Source of the DNA: a virus
Length of the DNA stretch: 64,000 nt
Reading direction: 5' to 3' (one strand)
IMG/VR virus record: IMGVR_UViG_3300042509_001467
Span: 16,668 to 80,667 of that record
The notes under the pieces are model-generated. The model did no database searches and was not told where the DNA came from. It saw only the letters and a list, made by a program, of their open reading frames with translations. Shown in pieces: positions 9,238-51,908 of the stretch; positions within the stretch are counted from its first letter, which is position 1; each line of letters starts with the position of its first letter. Both the position numbers and the translations under genes were made by a program.

Positions 9238-9650
9238 GCTGGTTCTCCGTTTTGAAACATCTTAAACTCTGCCCCATGGTCCAGGTAATCGAGGCTCTTA
9301 GATAAATCCTCCCTGATTTCTGCGTCGTAGTCGCGCTTAGATTTTACGTGAGATTCAAGGTATGCCCCTTCTGATTTCTCATCAAAATCATATCTAGCGC
9401 AGGTCTTGAGTGCCATTTCAAAGCTTCCGAGATGCCCGATATGAACGTCAATTACCTCATGTCCGCACTCACGGGTGTAGATGTCTTTTAGCTCAAACGC
9501 TTGGCACTTTCCGTCATCGTTTCGCGATATGTAGTACTTGCCAAACATTAGACAATCGTCTTTAATCTCAACCTGGGTCGTCTTAATACCCATAAGTGCC
9601 GTGTACCTTTTTGCGGTGTTGATCTCTTCGTTAGTAAATGTTTTGTTCAT
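9234..9650 (-). CDS. Hypothetical early protein
   Basis: AGGATAGA RBS. Confidence 0.7.
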   Translation of the reverse strand: MNKTFTNEEINTAKRYTALMGIKTTQVEIKDDCLMFGKYYISRNDDGKCQAFELKDIYTRECGHEVIDVHIGHLGSFEMALKTCARYDFDEKSEGAYLESHVKSKRDYDAEIREDLSKSLDYLDHGAEFKMFQNGEPA

Positions 9651-9663
9651 TGTTTTCTATCCT

Positions 9664-9731
9664 GCTATGAGTTCGGCATAGCTCCCTAGAATCTTTGGAC
9701 TCTAGGCAACCCTGCCGGGGTTGCTTTACTC
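9664..9731 (-). ncRNA. Unassigned structured RNA (three hairpins with potential pseudoknots)
   Basis: GCAACCC/GGGUUGC, CUAGAGUC/GAUUCUAG and GCUAUG/CAUAGC fill the intergenic gap up to the RBS. Confidence 0.6.
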
Positions 9732-9962
9732 TTACTCTACCGGGGCGCACCCTGGCTTATACATCTTTTGCCACGGTTCATGGCGCATAAACCTTTCGGC
9801 GTGGTCAATGTTCATGCCCTTAAACATCCGTTTCTCTTGGTGCATCCAGATTTTGACTAGCCCAGTGCTTCGGTCTACGAATTCCAGCCACCACCCGCCA
9901 TGTCGTTTGCCCATCCACTCAAGCTGCAATACGTGAGTATCATTCTGCTCAATGATCGTCAT
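9732..9962 (-). CDS. Hypothetical early protein
   Basis: Operon packing. Confidence 0.6.
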   Translation of the reverse strand: MTIIEQNDTHVLQLEWMGKRHGGWWLEFVDRSTGLVKIWMHQEKRMFKGMNIDHAERFMRHEPWQKMYKPGCAPVE

Positions 9963-10156
9963 AATTTATTCACCATCGCGCTAGGGTCTAGCCACGGGTT
10001 GATACCATCCGCATCCGTGACTCTAAACCTTTCGAATCCTTGATCTATCGCCCATTTCTTAGCCTCTTCGAACCGTGACCCATCGCCGACGGTGATAACA
10101 TCTTCTGCCCATTCCGGGTCACCCTTTCGGTGTCCCCATAATACGAATTCTCTCAT
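9959..10156 (-). CDS. Hypothetical early protein
   Basis: Operon packing; AGGAGG upstream. Confidence 0.65.
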   Translation of the reverse strand: MREFVLWGHRKGDPEWAEDVITVGDGSRFEEAKKWAIDQGFERFRVTDADGINPWLDPSAMVNKL

Positions 10157-10329
10157 AGTTCCATTGCCTCCTGCTCTCTCGATTGTTGCACCAGGTCTGC
10201 CGCATCGAAGAGGGGTTGAAATTGGCGCGTCATCTCTGCCGCCATTTGGTCATTGATTGCCCTCTTTGCGTCTGCCGGGTTTAACCCGGCATATACGGTC
10301 TTTTGGTTTATGATAATCTCAATTCTCAT
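10153..10329 (-). CDS. Hypothetical early protein (58 aa, not in ORF track)
   Basis: MRIEIIINQKTVYAGLNPADAK...; 4-nt overlaps on both sides. Confidence 0.55.
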   Translation of the reverse strand: MRIEIIINQKTVYAGLNPADAKRAINDQMAAEMTRQFQPLFDAADLVQQSREQEAMEL

Positions 10330-10618: not shown

Positions 10619-10626
10619 GTGTCTAT

Positions 10627-10676
10627 CCTCACTCTCTATTTTCACGGGCTTGTGACCGTCCATGGCTAGATTAAGG
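10627..10676 (-). ncRNA. Twister self-cleaving ribozyme, type P1
   Basis: Minus-strand RNA CCU-UAA-UCUA-GCC-AUGG-ACGG-UCACAAGC-CCGU-GAAAA-UAGA-GAGUG-AGG. P1 CCU/AGG, P2 UCUA/UAGA, P4 ACGG/CCGU; loop CAC pairs with GUG and GC pairs with GC for the two pseudoknots; invariant UAA and GAG in L1. Predicted cut U10673/A10672. Confidence 0.93.
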
Positions 10677-10702
10677 GTGCCAGGTGCTAACCTGGCATAG
10701 TG

Positions 10703-11119
10703 TTACTTGATCTTTGAGAGTGTCCAGCCATCCTCAGTCTTGCCATTGAATGTCTGCTCTAGAGTCCAGCCCAATTCTTTAAGCGCGTTGATCACTGATG
10801 ATTCACCCGCTGCCGAGGTTCGCGCGATCTTGTTATGCTCATCGCTTCCATGAGTGTAAATCCATCTTAGAAAATCTGCCATGACTGCCGAGGTCTTGCA
10901 ATACCCATACCCGCTGGCATACGCTACCTTTTCGCCTCGATGGTTACTGATTCGCGGGCATGACCCCCAGGTACTAGACTTGTTGTAGCTGATTGCGAAT
11001 CCGGCGCGTCCAGTGCCGTACTCTGAGTTGATTTGATTTACTAACACTTGCGCGTATTCTTGTGCGCGTAATTCAAGCGTCGTTAGTTTAGGTGTTTTGG
11101 TTGTTGTTGTATCGCTCAT
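10703..11119 (-). CDS. Conserved early protein (homolog of 47666..48052)
   Basis: S.TWG..P, ASG.GY.K.SA, L.W, EH.KI..AG, AL.E.G..LE shared with the phage B gene. Confidence 0.8.
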   Translation of the reverse strand: MSDTTTTKTPKLTTLELRAQEYAQVLVNQINSEYGTGRAGFAISYNKSSTWGSCPRISNHRGEKVAYASGYGYCKTSAVMADFLRWIYTHGSDEHNKIARTSAAGESSVINALKELGWTLEQTFNGKTEDGWTLSKIK

Positions 11120-14414: not shown

Positions 14415-15947
14415 ATGGATTGGCGAGAATTTAGATGTTGTAGCCCGGCGCAACGCCTCTTTCTTGACGCCTGTTTTGGCGTTGGGGTAAAGGCGCGTAC
14501 CGACGGGCGTACAAAACTCTATGTTCTCGGCGGTGGTGCTGGATTCGGTGGTAAGTCCTACTCAATCCGCACCGGAATCTTTGAGGCGGCTGTACGGCTT
14601 GCTGAGGCGGGAGTAAACAACCCATTGCAACTTGTATGCTGCCTCATGGAGACTGACCTTGAAGAGCGGCATATCAACAAGATTCTGCATAGCCAGGACA
14701 CGTACCCGCATGACGGCGAAGATATTGCTCGGCGTGGTCAGGACATCGGCTTGCTTAACGTTGGAACGCTAAAGCGTGAGGGTAAGAGCCAAGCCTGGAC
14801 ATTTACGTTTGAAGACCCGAAGCTAGGCAAGGTGTACTTTCGCCATGCCAAGAACCTAGACCGTAGAAAGGGTGCGGAGTACGATATGATCTGGGTGGAC
14901 GAGCTTACGCAGTTTGCCCGTGAGGATTTTGACTCCTTCAACTATATCCTTCGATCCTCAAAGAATCCCCCCTTCCTATCCTTCGTAGGCGTTACCAACC
15001 CTGACGGGCTTGGCAACTGGTGGGTGCGTAAGCTATGGGTTCCCGAGTTCCAAGACTTCTCAGACGAGAAGCTGACTAAGGAGCAGTTTGTCTTTGTACC
15101 CTTTAGGGCGACGGACAACCCGACCTTTAACGCTGACGTAGAGGCAACCCTGACCTCGGCATCGGACGTGATGGTCAAGAGCCGTTGGTACGGCGAGTGG
15201 GACATCATCAGCGGTATGCGCTTCCGGTTCCAAGAATCGGTGCATACCTTTACATGGCGCGACTTTGTAAAGTTCTACATGGGTAAGGAGTTTACGGATG
15301 CGCTGACTGATAGCATGGTCAATGACTATGCCCGGGAGCTATTGCTAGATGAGGAGCTTCTGGCGCATTACGCATCGTTTGACCCTGGTCTTGCTCATGC
15401 CTCCTTCCATATCCACGCCGTTGACAAGCATGGCAACGTTTGGACATGGCGTGAGCTTTACATGAACGACATGATTATCTTGGAGCAAGCTGACGCAATC
15501 CTCAAAGAACTTGCAGGGCTAAAGATCAGGAAGATGTTTGCTGACCCTGCGCTATGGGGCAGGGATCAGGGGACGGGGCTTGCCCGTGTATCTCAGTTTA
15601 GGAAGAAGGGGATCAACTTCTTTCCAGCGTACAACGACCGCATTAGCGGTTGGTCGCTGATAGACGAGAAGCTAGACCATAAGGGGCAACCAGGTACAGA
15701 AGGGTTTGTTAAGCCAAAGGCGATGATCCATTCTGGATGTAAGATGCTCTGCCACGGGTTACGGAACGCGCCAGCGAATAAGCATAACCCAGACGATATT
15801 GACCCTCAGTTTAAGGATGACCACGCACTAGATGACTACCGCTACTTTATTTTCTCACACTTCGGGAAACCAACCAACGCAAACAGGAAGAAATATGACA
15901 ACCAAAACAACAGAATCGAAGAAGGTTCAGCCCTTGCATCTCTCTAA
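14415..15947 (+). CDS. terL: Terminase large subunit
   Basis: GGGAGFGGKS Walker A, IWVDELTQF Walker B, TNP coupling motif, FDPG and DDHALDDYRY nuclease motifs. Confidence 0.92.
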   Translation: MDWREFRCCSPAQRLFLDACFGVGVKARTDGRTKLYVLGGGAGFGGKSYSIRTGIFEAAVRLAEAGVNNPLQLVCCLMETDLEERHINKILHSQDTYPHDGEDIARRGQDIGLLNVGTLKREGKSQAWTFTFEDPKLGKVYFRHAKNLDRRKGAEYDMIWVDELTQFAREDFDSFNYILRSSKNPPFLSFVGVTNPDGLGNWWVRKLWVPEFQDFSDEKLTKEQFVFVPFRATDNPTFNADVEATLTSASDVMVKSRWYGEWDIISGMRFRFQESVHTFTWRDFVKFYMGKEFTDALTDSMVNDYARELLLDEELLAHYASFDPGLAHASFHIHAVDKHGNVWTWRELYMNDMIILEQADAILKELAGLKIRKMFADPALWGRDQGTGLARVSQFRKKGINFFPAYNDRISGWSLIDEKLDHKGQPGTEGFVKPKAMIHSGCKMLCHGLRNAPANKHNPDDIDPQFKDDHALDDYRYFIFSHFGKPTNANRKKYDNQNNRIEEGSALASL

Positions 15948-46547: not shown

Positions 46548-46644
46548 AATTGCCCCGTTTTGCCGTCTACGCGCTGTTTCTAGGCGTTCTGATGCCCTTC
46601 CCGTCTCTGAACACGGGTGGCAAAGTAGAGGCGGCTTAAACGCG

Positions 46645-46685
46645 AAAAACAAAACCCCGCCCTAATTGGGCGAGGTGTTTCGTTG
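46645..46685. terminator. Bidirectional terminator at convergence
   Basis: CGCCC-TAATT-GGGCG with A-tract on the left and T-rich sequence on the right. Confidence 0.6.
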
Positions 46686-46805
46686 TTTGGCTAAGAAGCG
46701 GGATATTCTAGCAGCTTCCTCGGGGGTGCAAACCCACCAGTATTGTTTCGATCCTGGTGGGTGTTTGCGAGGGCGTCCTCGTGGTTTCTTTGGCGGTTCG
46801 GTCAT
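46662..46805 (-). CDS. 47-aa AT-hook peptide (not in ORF track)
   Basis: MTEPPKKPRGRPRKHPPG...; start overlaps the upstream stop. Confidence 0.6.
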   Translation of the reverse strand: MTEPPKKPRGRPRKHPPGSKQYWWVCTPEEAARISRFLAKQRNTSPN

Positions 46806-47038
46806 GGATTCCATTCCAAGATTCCAGGGTTTTCACCTGTGTCTACGTCACCAGGCACTACTCCTGCAATTAAGCTCAATGGAATTTCTACTGGGGTTCG
46901 ATTTGCGCCGCAGTTTCTGACGATTGCGACTAAATCATCTTGCCCATCACTGTGAGGGATTGAGAACGAATGAGCTTTGTACCATGTCGTTTCGTCTTTC
47001 CATGTGATGCCTACTAGAATGTTTTGTGGTTGGTTCAT
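46802..47038 (-). CDS. Hypothetical early protein
   Basis: GGAGG RBS before MNQPQ. Confidence 0.6.
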   Translation of the reverse strand: MNQPQNILVGITWKDETTWYKAHSFSIPHSDGQDDLVAIVRNCGANRTPVEIPLSLIAGVVPGDVDTGENPGILEWNP

Positions 47039-47241
47039 TGATTTCCTCCGTAAACGTAAGCCGCCTTGCACTCCATGAATTGAGTTTGGGTTACCGATGA
47101 TCCACACTCTTCACGAATGGCGTTCACGTCGGCAGATCGTCCAGCACCAGGGATGCTGAAATAGTGGCAGAGAATGAAGATGAATGCAGAGGCTAGAAAG
47201 ATGCCTAGCGTGGCGAGTAGAGTTAGTTCGATTTTATTCAT
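47035..47241 (-). CDS. Small membrane protein
   Basis: N-terminal TM helix; AGGTAA RBS. Confidence 0.65.
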   Translation of the reverse strand: MNKIELTLLATLGIFLASAFIFILCHYFSIPGAGRSADVNAIREECGSSVTQTQFMECKAAYVYGGNQ

Positions 47242-47253
47242 TTGGTTTTACCT

Positions 47254-47288
47254 AACCTCTTTTCGAGGTCGAGGGAGCGAACCCCCTC
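47254..47288 (-). ncRNA. Tandem-hairpin RNA element before RBS
   Basis: GAGGGGG-UUCG-CUCCCUC directly followed by GACCUC-GAAAA-GAGGUU. Confidence 0.5.
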
Positions 47289-47298
47289 CGCACGGTTT

Positions 47299-47598
47299 TC
47301 ACGCCTCGGATTGTTCAGCTTGACCCCAGTCTTTACACAAGTCGTTCCAAATGTCGTAGGTGTCGTTGTCACCAGGGCAAACTTCAAAGGGCTTGCCCAT
47401 GTCGTAGTTAAAGCAAGTGATTTGAACTTGCTTACCTGATTCTAGGCTTCGGTCAATGCTAATCTTAATGATTGCGTGATGGGCGCTAAATCTGCTTGTA
47501 TACTTGCCGCATTCCGAGTGGACGGCTTTAATCACGTTACCTAGTTGCAGATCAGAAGCGGAGCAGGAAAATGTTGAGTGGGAGATAGATGTTTTCAT
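47299..47598 (-). CDS. Hypothetical early protein downstream of the hammerhead
   Basis: AGGTAA RBS. Confidence 0.65.
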   Translation of the reverse strand: MKTSISHSTFSCSASDLQLGNVIKAVHSECGKYTSRFSAHHAIIKISIDRSLESGKQVQITCFNYDMGKPFEVCPGDNDTYDIWNDLCKDWGQAEQSEA

Positions 47599-47610
47599 TT
47601 GGTTTTACCT

Positions 47611-47665
47611 TTGCCTGGCTCTTCAGTTAGGGGCGGCAATCCCTAAGACCCCGAAGGGTTTCGCC
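47611..47665 (-). ncRNA. Hammerhead self-cleaving ribozyme, type II with pseudoknot
   Basis: Minus-strand RNA GGC-GAAA-CCC-UUCG-GGG-UC/-UUAGGG-AUUGCCGC-CCCUAA-CUGAAGA-GCC-A-GGCAA. Full CUGANGA and GAAA core, GUC cleavage triplet, loop-I UUGCC pairs with 3' GGCAA. Predicted cut C47647/U47646. Confidence 0.95.
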
Positions 47666-48052
47666 TTAGATTCTGGTTAAGTTGTAGCCAATCTCATTCT
47701 TGCCGTAGTATGTGCGCTCCAGCAGGTATCCACACTCTTTCAGGGCGTCGCATAGGGAATTGATACCAACGCCAGCGCATGAGCTAATCTTGCCATGCTC
47801 AGCCGTGCCACGCTCAAAAAGCCATTTGAGAGAGTAAGCAAGGCAAGCGGAGTGCTTATCATAGCCGCAACCACTAGCAGAAGCCAGCTTGATACCGCCG
47901 ATGGTGTAGACCGTGGGGATGTTGCCCCATGTGCGGGATGATGTAAAGACTACGCCAAGTTGAATTGTGCCGCCTGACTTTTGGATTAGGTTTTGGGAGA
48001 GGAAAAAATCTTGGATTCGGGATTCGGTTGTGTTGAGTTTTTGAGTTTTCAT
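47666..48052 (-). CDS. Conserved early protein (homolog of 10703..11119)
   Basis: SRTWG.IP, ASGCGYDKHSA, LKW, EHGKI..AGVG. Confidence 0.8.
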   Translation of the reverse strand: MKTQKLNTTESRIQDFFLSQNLIQKSGGTIQLGVVFTSSRTWGNIPTVYTIGGIKLASASGCGYDKHSACLAYSLKWLFERGTAEHGKISSCAGVGINSLCDALKECGYLLERTYYGKNEIGYNLTRI

Positions 48053-48447
48053 TTGATTTACCTTCGTCCCGATCTCTCGGGTACATAATCATTATTACAT
48101 AGAAAATCGGAATTGGTAGGGTTGAGGCGCATTTCCATCAAATATGTCATGCGTAGGTTCAAAATTGAGGCGTGATTATGGGCAAATCATCAAATCTGTC
48201 ATGTCCAGGCTGAAAACGTCGAAAAACGATAAAAAACGTAGTATTTGGGAGATAATCAAAGAAAAACGACGATCCGCGTAGGCACAAACTCGCCTCAAAA
48301 AACGTTCAGGGGGAAAGGGGGAACGGCCAAAATCGTCAGAAATATCATGCGATTTGAACCTACGCCCATCCAAAGAAGCAACAAAATCATCAAAAAGATC
48401 ATGTTTCGCGCATCGCTTGGGTATGCTCCGGGCGTCTGGAAAAATAT

Positions 48448-49008
48448 ATGCTAGCGATAGATGCAGGTCATGGGATGATGAATACGGGCATAGGGTACGA
48501 CCCTGGCGCGACGGCTCGTCACGGCGGCAAAACCTACAAGGAGGCAGATATTGCCCTGGAGTACGCACTCACCATGAAGCAGGTGTGCATTGATCTTGGG
48601 ATACCGTACAAGCTGACGCGCAGCCTAAAGGTTCAACCTGCCCCATTGAAGCACCGAGTATCCCGTATGAAAGGTGCAAGGGCATTGATTAGCTTCCATT
48701 GCAACGCTGGCGGTGGTACAGGCACGGAGACGATCTACGGGGATGATTCGGATACTCGTTGGGCGTTAGCCGTTCAGGATGCCGCCCTAAAGGGCTTGGA
48801 GCTACGCAATCGCGGGCTTAAAGACGATTCGACCACCAGGCACGGCAAGTTAGCGATACTCCAAGGCTCGTTTCCGTCGGCATTACTGGAGCTTGGTTTC
48901 ATCGACAATCGGGATGACGTACATCGGATGACCGAACGGGCAAGGCGTTTGAAGGTTTGCTACGGCATCGCCACGGCGTATATCCGAATATATGGAAACA
49001 AAAACTAG
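48448..49008 (+). CDS. Endolysin, N-acetylmuramoyl-L-alanine amidase (Amidase_3)
   Basis: IDAGHG, E..IAL, ISFHCNA, G.ET, LLELGFIDN. Confidence 0.93.
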   Translation: MLAIDAGHGMMNTGIGYDPGATARHGGKTYKEADIALEYALTMKQVCIDLGIPYKLTRSLKVQPAPLKHRVSRMKGARALISFHCNAGGGTGTETIYGDDSDTRWALAVQDAALKGLELRNRGLKDDSTTRHGKLAILQGSFPSALLELGFIDNRDDVHRMTERARRLKVCYGIATAYIRIYGNKN

Positions 49009-49838: not shown

Positions 49839-50233
49839 GTGAACACCTTCCGGCGTCCGTAGATATAGCCTCGTTGGTGCAATCACTAGCGGGGTGCGAC
49901 TATAACCATTTCGACATTGCGGAGATTATTGGGTTGCCAGTGGATCAGATGCGGCGGGACTATGCAAACCAGCTAAAGGCGCGTGAGGTGTTGATTGATG
50001 ATGCCTACTATTGCGCTCAGAGTCTTGTGAAGCGTTTGCGGCGGCACTTAGAGGCGGGGACGCATGAGCAGATGCCACGGCACGTATTCAACGAGAGTGC
50101 AAAGCTGGTGGTTGAAACGCTTAAGAGTAAGGGCGGTTGGACGGTTAACCCTGTGACGGCTACCCTGAACTACGATATGAGTAACCCTGAGGTCGTGAAG
50201 GCTTTGAAAATTCTTGGGGTCGAGCTTGGCTAA
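49835..50233 (+). CDS. Putative terminase small subunit
   Basis: N-terminal HTH (DIAEIIGL...RRDY..L), LKSKGGW, precedes TerL. Confidence 0.6.
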   Translation: MSEHLPASVDIASLVQSLAGCDYNHFDIAEIIGLPVDQMRRDYANQLKAREVLIDDAYYCAQSLVKRLRRHLEAGTHEQMPRHVFNESAKLVVETLKSKGGWTVNPVTATLNYDMSNPEVVKALKILGVELG

Positions 50234-51908
50234 ATCGTTGACCTTCCCCAACGGGAAGAAGTCAATCATTCTCACGGATGCCGAGAAGGAAGCGGCGGCG
50301 CGTACATTGCGATTAGCCGAACGCGGCGTATGCCTTTGGGGCAATCAGTTCAAGGACAATGCGCGGGATGCCTGTAAGTTTATTTTCGGCTACATTCACA
50401 CGCAAGAGGAAACCACGGGTGCAGAGATGCGGATACCTCGTAAGCGTTATCTGATGAACATTGCCCGGAATTGGTACAAGTGCCGCAGATCGGGCAGGAC
50501 GTTCTACATCCATAAGTCACGGCGTCTCATTGTGTCGTGGTTTGTGCGATCCTTAGAGCTATTTGCGGCGGGTTTCTCGTCTGCTGGCTTTGGTATTGCC
50601 GCGAAACACTTCCAAGGCATGAACGGTGCTTGTGCGTTCGTGTGGCGCGTGTATTTCCTGTATGAGAGTTTGCGCGTCAATTACCCTGAATGGAACCTAG
50701 AGAAATCTAGTCCTAGGGGTGCGGTGCTGAGTAAAGAGCTTGATACGCTGATTTTGCCCAACGGGGCCATCTTCCACGCGCTTAATAGCGACAAGGAAGG
50801 CGTTCGTGGTGGTGGTATGTCTTACATTGCCTATGAGGAATTGTCGGGGTACTCCAATCCCGATGCGGTCATTGGGCAGGGTCGAATCATTGTGCAAGGT
50901 CCAGCGGGTGAGGTCGGCGGTATGGTTTGCGCTATTTCTAACGCAAGTGCCAATCCAGAGTATAAGGCTCAGATCAAGGGCGACCACCAGATTAGACCCG
51001 TGGTAGTGCCAGACAAGACGTACAATGCGGACTCCGGGGGTTTGGTGCAAGTGATCCACTACAAAGCAGACCCGGCAAAGGATGACGCTTGGGTAACGCT
51101 AACAAAGGCTGGAGTACCGCCCCGTGAGTGGGAAGCGGAAATGGAACTCAGCGACGAGATACATTCAGGCGATCCTGTTCACGCTCAATTTGAGTACGCG
51201 ATCCATGCTCCTACATCTGGCAGACATGAGCTTTGGAAGATTGACCCTAACGGTGAACTCATTGGATCGTGGGACTGCTCAACCAGCACGGTTAACTTCT
51301 CGTTCGTGCTGAAGCAGATCACAAAGAATCGGCACGGCGAAGATCAGGTGCAGACGCTACTTGGCTATGACAGCGGAGGCGCATCGAACATCTATGCCTT
51401 TTGCGAGGGCTTGATGGCTCATTTACGGCGCAACTATCCAAGGCTTGAAGGTTGGCGCATTGAACACTTCGGAGACCCTGCAATGACCGCACGTAGTGGA
51501 AGCGATCCCAATGGACGTACCATGCAGGAGATTATTCGCTCACTTGGCTACAACATCAAGGTCGCTCCAACCCAGAACGTGCAGGATCGTCTCAATGGGA
51601 CGGACAGGCTCCAATCCCAGACGTTATCCGATGGCTCCCCGCGTTGGGTAGTCAATGAATACGGATGCCCAACGCTTGTTGAGGCACTTAAAGGCGCGTA
51701 CTGTTGGCGTGAGGTTAAGAATGTACATACGGGTGGGCAAACGGTGTACAAAGAGCCAGCAAAGAATGGATTTAGTCACGCTGCGGATGCTAACCAATAC
51801 GGCGACTTGGTAGCAGATCGAAGGATCAACGCACCAAAACAATCTAGGGAAACATCAGGAGGAATGAAGTTTAATGAGAAAGCGGCATTTGGTAAGCCTA
51901 AAAGGTAA
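50214..51908 (+). CDS. terL: Terminase large subunit
   Basis: KSRRL.VSW (Walker A variant), IAYEE, GDPA, K..FSHAADA.QY. Confidence 0.85.
   Translation: MGSSLAKSLTFPNGKKSIILTDAEKEAAARTLRLAERGVCLWGNQFKDNARDACKFIFGYIHTQEETTGAEMRIPRKRYLMNIARNWYKCRRSGRTFYIHKSRRLIVSWFVRSLELFAAGFSSAGFGIAAKHFQGMNGACAFVWRVYFLYESLRVNYPEWNLEKSSPRGAVLSKELDTLILPNGAIFHALNSDKEGVRGGGMSYIAYEELSGYSNPDAVIGQGRIIVQGPAGEVGGMVCAISNASANPEYKAQIKGDHQIRPVVVPDKTYNADSGGLVQVIHYKADPAKDDAWVTLTKAGVPPREWEAEMELSDEIHSGDPVHAQFEYAIHAPTSGRHELWKIDPNGELIGSWDCSTSTVNFSFVLKQITKNRHGEDQVQTLLGYDSGGASNIYAFCEGLMAHLRRNYPRLEGWRIEHFGDPAMTARSGSDPNGRTMQEIIRSLGYNIKVAPTQNVQDRLNGTDRLQSQTLSDGSPRWVVNEYGCPTLVEALKGAYCWREVKNVHTGGQTVYKEPAKNGFSHAADANQYGDLVADRRINAPKQSRETSGGMKFNEKAAFGKPKR

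Follow-up and report, generated by a model that had tools for sequence, protein, structure and literature searches.

A compact type II hammerhead ribozyme candidate in the spacer of a small phage operon

In the phage contig considered here, a short stretch of the minus strand, lying between the stop codon of one gene and the ribosome-binding site of the next, had been described from its letters as a pseudoknotted type II hammerhead. The locus raises the question of whether this stretch is a genuine self-cleaving ribozyme or a fortuitous resemblance and, if it is genuine, what its cleavage would bring to the phage. The window, that is, the whole stretch of DNA which was analysed, comprises 64,000 nucleotides of a contig of 80,667 bp. 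Our best explanation, which we consider likely, is that a type II hammerhead, its loop I and 3′ tail joined in a pseudoknot, occupies the spacer of a small leftward phage operon and splits the operon RNA.

Genomic setting and architecture of the element

The contig is DNA of an uncultured phage and stems from lake-water metagenomes, and the 24 public runs in which matching contigs were found are all lake-water metagenome DNA, with no RNA dataset among them. A BLAST comparison of positions 46600-48600 with 50,697 phage records gave no match, and the terminase had only weak matches, to Burkholderia and Pasteurella phages. As to the local gene order, a short set of leftward genes, flanked by a rightward replication module (DnaB-like helicase and replication initiator) and by a rightward module with endolysin and packaging genes, has the element behind its first gene. 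This leftward set forms a small operon, which probably spans from about 48.2 kb down to a terminator-like hairpin at 46.66 kb, behind the last leftward ORF; promoter-like hexamers were seen near 48200, in a scan that was overall at chance level. Both ORFs next to the ribozyme candidate (47666..48052 and 47299..47598) are encoded on its own strand. In the other spacers of the operon, plain hairpins stand ahead of the same ribosome-binding site, AGGUAAA..CAAAUG in the RNA, and AGGTAAA..CAAATG also precedes the 128-aa ORF (around 48064-48050) and a 68-aa ORF (47253-47239).

Two further observations were made on this DNA. The 128-aa gene has a conserved 5′ stem-loop, CCCGA-GAGA-UCGGG (48068-48081, minus strand), immediately ahead of its ribosome-binding site; the pairing of this hairpin is kept in the related contig L001 and in metagenome run X22 by a double change from C-G to G-C, the loop being GCAA there instead of GAGA. 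In addition, the contig holds two genes resembling that of the terminase large subunit (14415-15947 and 50214-51908, both on the plus strand) as well as two replicative-helicase regions, because of which the 80.7-kb contig may consist of two tandem phage genomes or be a chimeric assembly formed via shared mosaic segments. L001 matches both halves of the contig, for example at 86% in window positions 9648-10186.

On the minus strand, the RNA reads UAA, GGC GAAA CCC-UUCG-GGG UC, then the predicted cut, and then UUAGGG-AUUGCCGC-CCCUAA CUGAAGA GCC A GGCAA AGGUAAAACCAA AUG; the positions of the individual parts are collected in Table 1. The topology is that of type II, with stems I and III capped, stem II open and the stems arranged in the order II-III-I-II, stems II, III and I having 3, 4 and 6 bp, respectively. 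Both pairs which flank the core are Watson-Crick, namely G47619-C47663 (G10.1-C11.1) and U47646-A47627 (N1.1-N2.1), and U16.1 corresponds to position 47648. The A at N7 of CUGAAGA is a permitted minority variant that was present in 5 of 106 viral relatives. From GGC to GCC the element measures 49 nt, and it is thus among the most compact members of a family which ranges from 48 to 65 nt.

The preliminary description had placed the start of the ribozyme at the base after the TAA of ORF 47666..48052 and had noted that GGCAA runs straight into AGGUAA. Both statements hold. The TAA occupies 47668-47666 and the GGC of the ribozyme begins at 47665; at the other end, GGCAA (47615-47611) is directly followed on its 3′ side by AGGUAA (47610-47605), and the ATG of ORF 47299..47598 comes at 47598-47596. 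The conserved unpaired 5′ A of the family corresponds to position 47666, so that the element overlaps the TAA by one base; because 79 of the 106 relatives have an A immediately before GGC, the last A of a TAA or TGA stop doubles as this conserved 5′ A. The cut that had been predicted after C47647 is likewise where hammerhead numbering would put it.

Table 1. Positions in the window of the ribozyme candidate, its parts and the neighbouring features
Feature	Position	Strand	Basis or remark
Type II hammerhead ribozyme candidate, entire	47611..47666	-	Runs from the conserved 5′ A, shared with the stop codon as its last base, to the end of the pseudoknot strand
Stem II, 5′ strand GGC (11.3-11.1)	47663..47665	-	Sequence; pairs with GCC 47619-47617; GGC/GCC invariant in 106 viral relatives
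Core box GAAA (G12 A13 A14 A15.1)	47659..47662	-	Sequence; Rfam and R1 consensus alignment
Stem III hairpin, 4 bp (A15.1-U16.1 and CCC/GGG), UUCG tetraloop	47648..47659	-	Sequence; MFE fold of the isolated RNA
C17, predicted cleavage site	47647	-	Hammerhead numbering, GUC triplet; predicted cut between 47647 and 47646
Stem I hairpin UUAGGG/CCCUAA, 6 bp, 8-nt loop AUUGCCGC	47627..47646	-	Sequence; fold
Pseudoknot strand UUGCC in loop I	47635..47639	-	Perfect 5-bp complement of 47615-47611
Core box CUGAAGA (C3 U4 G5 A6 N7 G8 A9)	47620..47626	-	Sequence; Rfam and R1 alignment
Stem II, 3′ strand GCC	47617..47619	-	Sequence; G10.1 is 47619
Pseudoknot strand GGCAA in 3′ tail	47611..47615	-	Sequence; separated from stem II by a single linker A (47616)
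AGGUAA ribosome-binding site, spacer and ATG of downstream ORF	47596..47610	-	Sequence
17-nt direct repeat AGGTAAAACCAAATGAA (ribosome-binding site and start), copies 1/2	47594..47610 / 47237..47253	-	Sequence
Downstream gene, 99-aa ORFan	47299..47598	-	Cassette missing from the nearest relative, L001
Upstream gene, encoding a 128-aa member of a widespread, uncharacterised family of phage proteins	47666..48052	-	Homologues at more than 100 loci
Terminator-like hairpin, 9 pairs then T-run, probable operon end	46654..46676	-	Consensus scan; site counts at chance level, suggestive only
Twister-P1-like element (RF03160)	10626..10677	-	52 bits, gathering score 67.2, E 1e-8 (whole window)

Comparison with type II hammerheads

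A search with Rfam Hammerhead_II, which had been proposed as a check, supported the identification only in part. In a 281-nt scan this family (RF02276) was the best one and positions 47609-47666 were aligned over the full model, whereas the score of 26.7 bits (E 0.0016) stayed under the gathering score of 37. When the whole 64-kb window was scanned with Rfam, no match reached a gathering score, and at E≤1 only a twister was reported and the hammerhead was missing. The low score is explained by the compactness of the element, since 37 of 41 longer array members exceeded the Rfam threshold in a calibration scan; other compact members with complete cores (L036 and L050, 48-49 nt) were also missed by Rfam at E≤0.01.

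Relatives were sought by scanning viral contigs for the core pattern GGCGAAAC..GTC..CTGANGAGCC. More than 120 viral contigs matched it, many of them with 2 to 6 copies, and both stems had at least 4 bp in 142 of the 165 matches that were parsed. A covariance model, R1, was made from 106 non-redundant viral type II hammerheads, with the window and its near-twin L001 left out. Against the window R1 produced a single match, at 47666..47616, with 44.7 bits (E 2.3e-10). Within the R1 alignment 97% of the cells were paired, a figure biased by the stem filter used, and covariation was strong. We also applied a relaxed descriptor which demanded at least 2, 3 and 4 pairs in stems II, III and I, respectively. 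It found one site in the 80,667-bp contig, the hammerhead itself, and 4 sites in 102 dinucleotide shuffles, or about 0.04 per shuffled genome. The core boxes alone (GAAA..TC..CTGANGA) had 3 matches compared with 4.7 expected, which is chance frequency, and therefore only the full descriptor is meaningful.

Folding of the isolated 50-nt element gave the hammerhead secondary structure as its MFE fold (−14.1 kcal/mol). When 7-10 nt of flanking sequence were included at both ends, the nested MFE (−16.1 kcal/mol) belonged to another structure, one with GGCGA paired to loop I, in a calculation where the pseudoknot cannot be counted; the energy of a 64-nt stretch was unremarkable relative to shuffles (z-score 0.76), with a nested fold that excludes the pseudoknot. 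Across the family, complementarity of at least 5 bp between loop I and the tail was present in 22 of 134 members, whereas swapping the tails among members gave 3.25 on average and 9 at most, and the pseudoknot geometry found here, with a loop offset of 1 nt and a linker of 1 nt, is common to L016, L028, L031, L086 and L114. The type II topology and the pseudoknot that were claimed in the preliminary description were thus borne out by the sequence, by R1, by the descriptor and by this shared geometry.

In L001, the only close relative, the ribozyme is identical, and for this reason there is no covariation in the orthologous lineage. A metagenome variant showed 20 changes in a 613-nt contig, none of them in the ribozyme, and in four lake metagenome DNA runs the ribozyme had no variant letters; in both cases the entire surrounding 232 nt were equally unchanged, and therefore the invariance does not single out the ribozyme and nothing follows from it for selection.

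The position relative to the neighbouring genes is also that of the family. Among 127 distinct viral relatives, 83 have the stop codon of an upstream ORF (at least 50 codons) −1 to 6 nt before the ribozyme, and direct abutment (0 nt) is the commonest spacing, in 29 of the 127 as well as here. The next start codon lies mostly 21-29 nt past stem II in the relatives and 18 nt past it in this operon.

By all structural criteria that can be applied to a sequence, 47666..47611 (−) is a genuine-looking type II hammerhead, for which cleavage is predicted. The sub-threshold Rfam score and the chance frequency of the core boxes would suit a fortuitous match to the motif, or a plain hairpin spacer devoid of catalysis. 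We find this scarcely credible, since three stems and the pseudoknot all accompany the core, the R1 E value and the rarity of descriptor sites in shuffled genomes argue against it, and the site occupies exactly the place and the strand that are usual for the family. We are highly confident in the prediction that the element cleaves.

Natural type II hammerheads have been described in which loop I forms a pseudoknot with the tail behind stem II, an interaction that mutation and compensation showed to be required for fast cleavage (Perreault et al., 2011; PMC3088659). According to the same study, stem II can be as short as 2 bp and hammerheads flank prophage genes; it accepted candidates with no mispairs beside the core and with Watson-Crick core-adjacent pairs, and it proposed that long phage transcripts are processed by hammerheads to gene-length mRNAs. 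Three type II hammerheads near phage-like genes of Desulfovibrio vulgaris cleave in vivo (PMC8782182). The element studied here resembles the RF02276 hammerheads (PMC3088659) in its core, its permuted topology, its short stem II, its loop I/tail pseudoknot of at least 4 bp and its phage setting between genes of the same strand. It differs from them in being very compact (49 nt, with a 4-bp stem III closed by UUCG) and under the Rfam threshold, in occurring as a single copy without an array, and in having a pseudoknot strand that abuts the ribosome-binding site. With the clustered hammerheads of prophages and phages (PMC3088659; D. vulgaris, PMC8782182) it shares the layout of stop codon, ribozyme and ribosome-binding site and the proposed role in the processing of polycistronic phage RNA, whereas here a lone hammerhead is found in 80.7 kb and the other spacers of the operon are plain hairpins. 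No second hammerhead was detected by the descriptor in the contig or by R1 in the window, and the only other ribozyme-like match is a twister 37 kb off in another operon; we therefore regard the element as a single intergenic hammerhead and not as part of an array. The arrangement has been known in phages since 2011, and the locus is a clean but ordinary example of the class in its usual place. It adds one compact, sub-threshold member to a well-known ribozyme class and shows that the Rfam cut-off misses such short members.

A separate feature was observed in a subset of the type II hammerheads of viral contigs (L005, L014, L015, L034, L066 and L080), which have no loop I pseudoknot and instead have UCGUCAG or UCAUCAG as 3′ tail. 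Read as its reverse complement, this tail matches the catalytic CUGAYGA box that lies shortly before it, and the two could form a hairpin that sequesters the core, either as an off-state or as a post-cleavage structure.

The upstream gene family and its 3′ junction

The protein encoded upstream of the ribozyme belongs to a family of about 125-190 aa with the motifs W..SRTWG.NP (TWGN.P), ASGCGYDK.S and a C-terminal G.G...G, in which S-G-x-G-Y-x-K is invariant (loci L122-L245); homologue P0002 is 62% identical to it. The AlphaFold model of the 128-aa protein had a pLDDT of 92. Neither Pfam nor PHROG has an entry for the protein, no usable match was found in the ESM Atlas, and a comparison of the model with the PDB gave no clear match (Foldseek against the PDB; best Z of 4.5 with VIA-align).

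A paralogue with 39% identity to the 128-aa protein, ORF 10703..11119 (−), is present in the same window, and the twister-P1-like element begins 25 nt past its stop codon. The 64-kb window has only these two ribozyme matches, one after each paralogue. Beyond the window, L143/L236 and L169 carry type II hammerheads −1 and +1 nt, respectively, after the stop codon of the homologue; their stems are entirely different from those described above and fully paired, and they may be independent insertions. Pistol ribozymes over the Rfam threshold were found 6-7 nt after the homologue's stop codon in L134 (2864-2933, 63.3 bits) and L129 (1406-1481, 57 bits), and several further homologues have strong hairpins in the slot after the stop. 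Throughout 534 kb of homologue loci, the hammerheads (all loci searched) and the pistols (14 loci searched) were all located at this one junction. In L136 (2914-2980) and L161 (1241-1310), the slot after the homologue holds interleaved strands, CGCG..GGGCGG..CGCG..CCGCCC, resembling an H-type pseudoknot; this motif matched no Rfam family at E≤0.5.

The presence of a hammerhead, a twister, a pistol or a hairpin in homologous slots fits an RNA-end-forming element, and the upstream gene tends to attract one. About 65 of some 95 distinct homologues end less than 30 nt before the next gene, which leaves no room for a ribozyme, and cleavage is therefore not essential to the upstream gene. An HMM of the 128-aa family found no member among 8,784 ORFs in 120 hammerhead-seeded loci, and hammerheads in general therefore do not depend on this upstream gene.

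In the published pattern, hammerhead and twister share unexplained gene associations and the ribozyme class seems not to matter; by the same logic, pistol, hatchet and twister-sister were discovered (PMC6765202; PMC4604425). The present case is like those shared associations of bacterial and phage ribozymes (Roth 2014, Weinberg 2015, via PMC6765202 and PMC4604425) in that homologues of one phage gene precede, in the same slot, a hammerhead, a twister or a pistol; it differs in that the gene is pinned to one uncharacterised family absent from Pfam and PHROG. We offer as a tentative and rather doubtful proposal that the 3′ junction of the TWGxxP/ASGCGYDK genes is a conserved slot for formers of RNA ends (hammerhead, twister, pistol, pseudoknot or hairpin) and that the protein might depend or act on those ends. 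If this were true, the 128-aa family would provide an experimental handle on why self-cleaving ribozymes accompany particular phage genes. The wider value of the locus is that of a data point on the role of self-cleaving ribozymes in phage operons and on the reason for their gene associations. At one and the same position, a single unannotated gene family carries three unrelated classes of ribozyme, or else hairpins, which points to RNA-end formation at this junction as the selected function, and since the family can now be named the idea can be tested, which makes it a more useful lead than the hammerhead itself.

Proposed processing of the operon RNA and other possible roles

During transcription, stem III with its UUCG loop and stem I would fold, and the tail GGCAA would pair with loop I and so dock stem I beside the 3-bp stem II. 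The 2′-OH of C47647 would then attack its own 3′ phosphate, and the resulting cut in the polycistronic RNA would lie 19 nt past the stop of the 128-aa gene and 48 nt short of the next ATG. Of the two products, the upstream message would carry the stem III hairpin at its 3′ end (...CCC-UUCG-GGG-UC), with only two unpaired bases and a 2′,3′-cyclic phosphate, and the downstream message would begin with a 5′-OH on the first paired base of stem I, its ribosome-binding site lying just past the pseudoknot. The preliminary description had likewise predicted an upstream product ending in stem III and a downstream product starting with a 5′-OH stem I, which is geometrically correct and true of any type II hammerhead.

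Hairpins and cyclic phosphates at 3′ ends, as well as paired 5′-OH ends, make RNAs poor substrates for 3′ exonucleases, for polyadenylation and for 5′-monophosphate-dependent RNases in the decay of bacterial RNA. From this we infer that the ends of the products would stabilise both RNAs, as would apply to every type II hammerhead. As has been proposed for hammerheads flanking prophage genes, the likely purpose would be to make the two operon halves independent of each other in stability and thereby in expression. That cleavage serves differential mRNA stability of the operon parts is, in our assessment, somewhat favoured.

The gene that follows the ribozyme differs between the window and L001. 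Between 51031 and 47594, a stretch which takes in the ribozyme as well as the ribosome-binding site and ATGAA, the two are 91% identical, and past 47594 a BLAST of L001 against the window continues with the gene which starts at 47241 in the window. Because L001 skips from 47594 to this gene, the window carries an extra cassette encoding the 99-aa ORFan, for which a search of 5.8 billion proteins returned the ORF itself as sole match. The two copies of AGGTAAAACCAAATGAA bracket this cassette, and the coexistence of both forms in nature is shown by lake metagenome run X24, in which a loose end occurs at 47594. It therefore seems that the repeated ribosome-binding-site linker is a point of exchange for gene cassettes.

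Apart from RNA processing, the element might control translation. In such a scheme UUGCC of loop I would pair either with GGCAA, forming the pseudoknot and leaving the ribosome-binding site free, or with GGUAA, masking the site at the expense of the pseudoknot, so that folding or cleavage would be coupled to ribosome access. The layout invites this idea, as AGGCAA and AGGUAA are adjacent near-repeats and UUGCC (47635-47639) is complementary, with one G-U pair, to the GGUAA of the ribosome-binding site (47605-47610 region), six bases downstream of GGCAA. In predicted nested folds UUGCC does pair with GGUAA, and the two G's of the ribosome-binding site have an unpaired probability of only 0.02-0.03; these predicted values are the same before and after cleavage, however, which speaks against a switch, and the masking fold would compete with the 6-bp stem I. 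Ribozymes which promote translation of a downstream ORF have been reported for RNA viruses (PMC13725137), but in the operon studied here AGGUAAA is the standard ribosome-binding site, used also without a ribozyme, and the relatives show no general likeness between tail and ribosome-binding site. We therefore consider translational control improbable.

It might also be supposed that the hammerhead is a passenger of a mobile intergenic module, where it would persist by moving along with the conserved ribosome-binding-site linker at which cassettes are exchanged, and has little or no selected effect in the phage. The cassette data lend themselves to this reading: L001 agrees in every letter of the ribozyme, ribosome-binding site and ATGAA and yet continues with a different gene, the 99-aa cassette is bounded by the 17-nt repeats of the ribosome-binding-site region, and lake metagenomes contain both forms; moreover, most homologues of the upstream gene are without a ribozyme. 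Against it stand the core, which is intact at every position, and the slot itself, where three structurally unrelated ribozyme classes follow homologous genes, and we regard the passenger role as quite improbable. The presence of three unrelated classes in one slot argues for selection on cleavage itself, a conclusion that reviewers of the field have also reached (PMC6765202).
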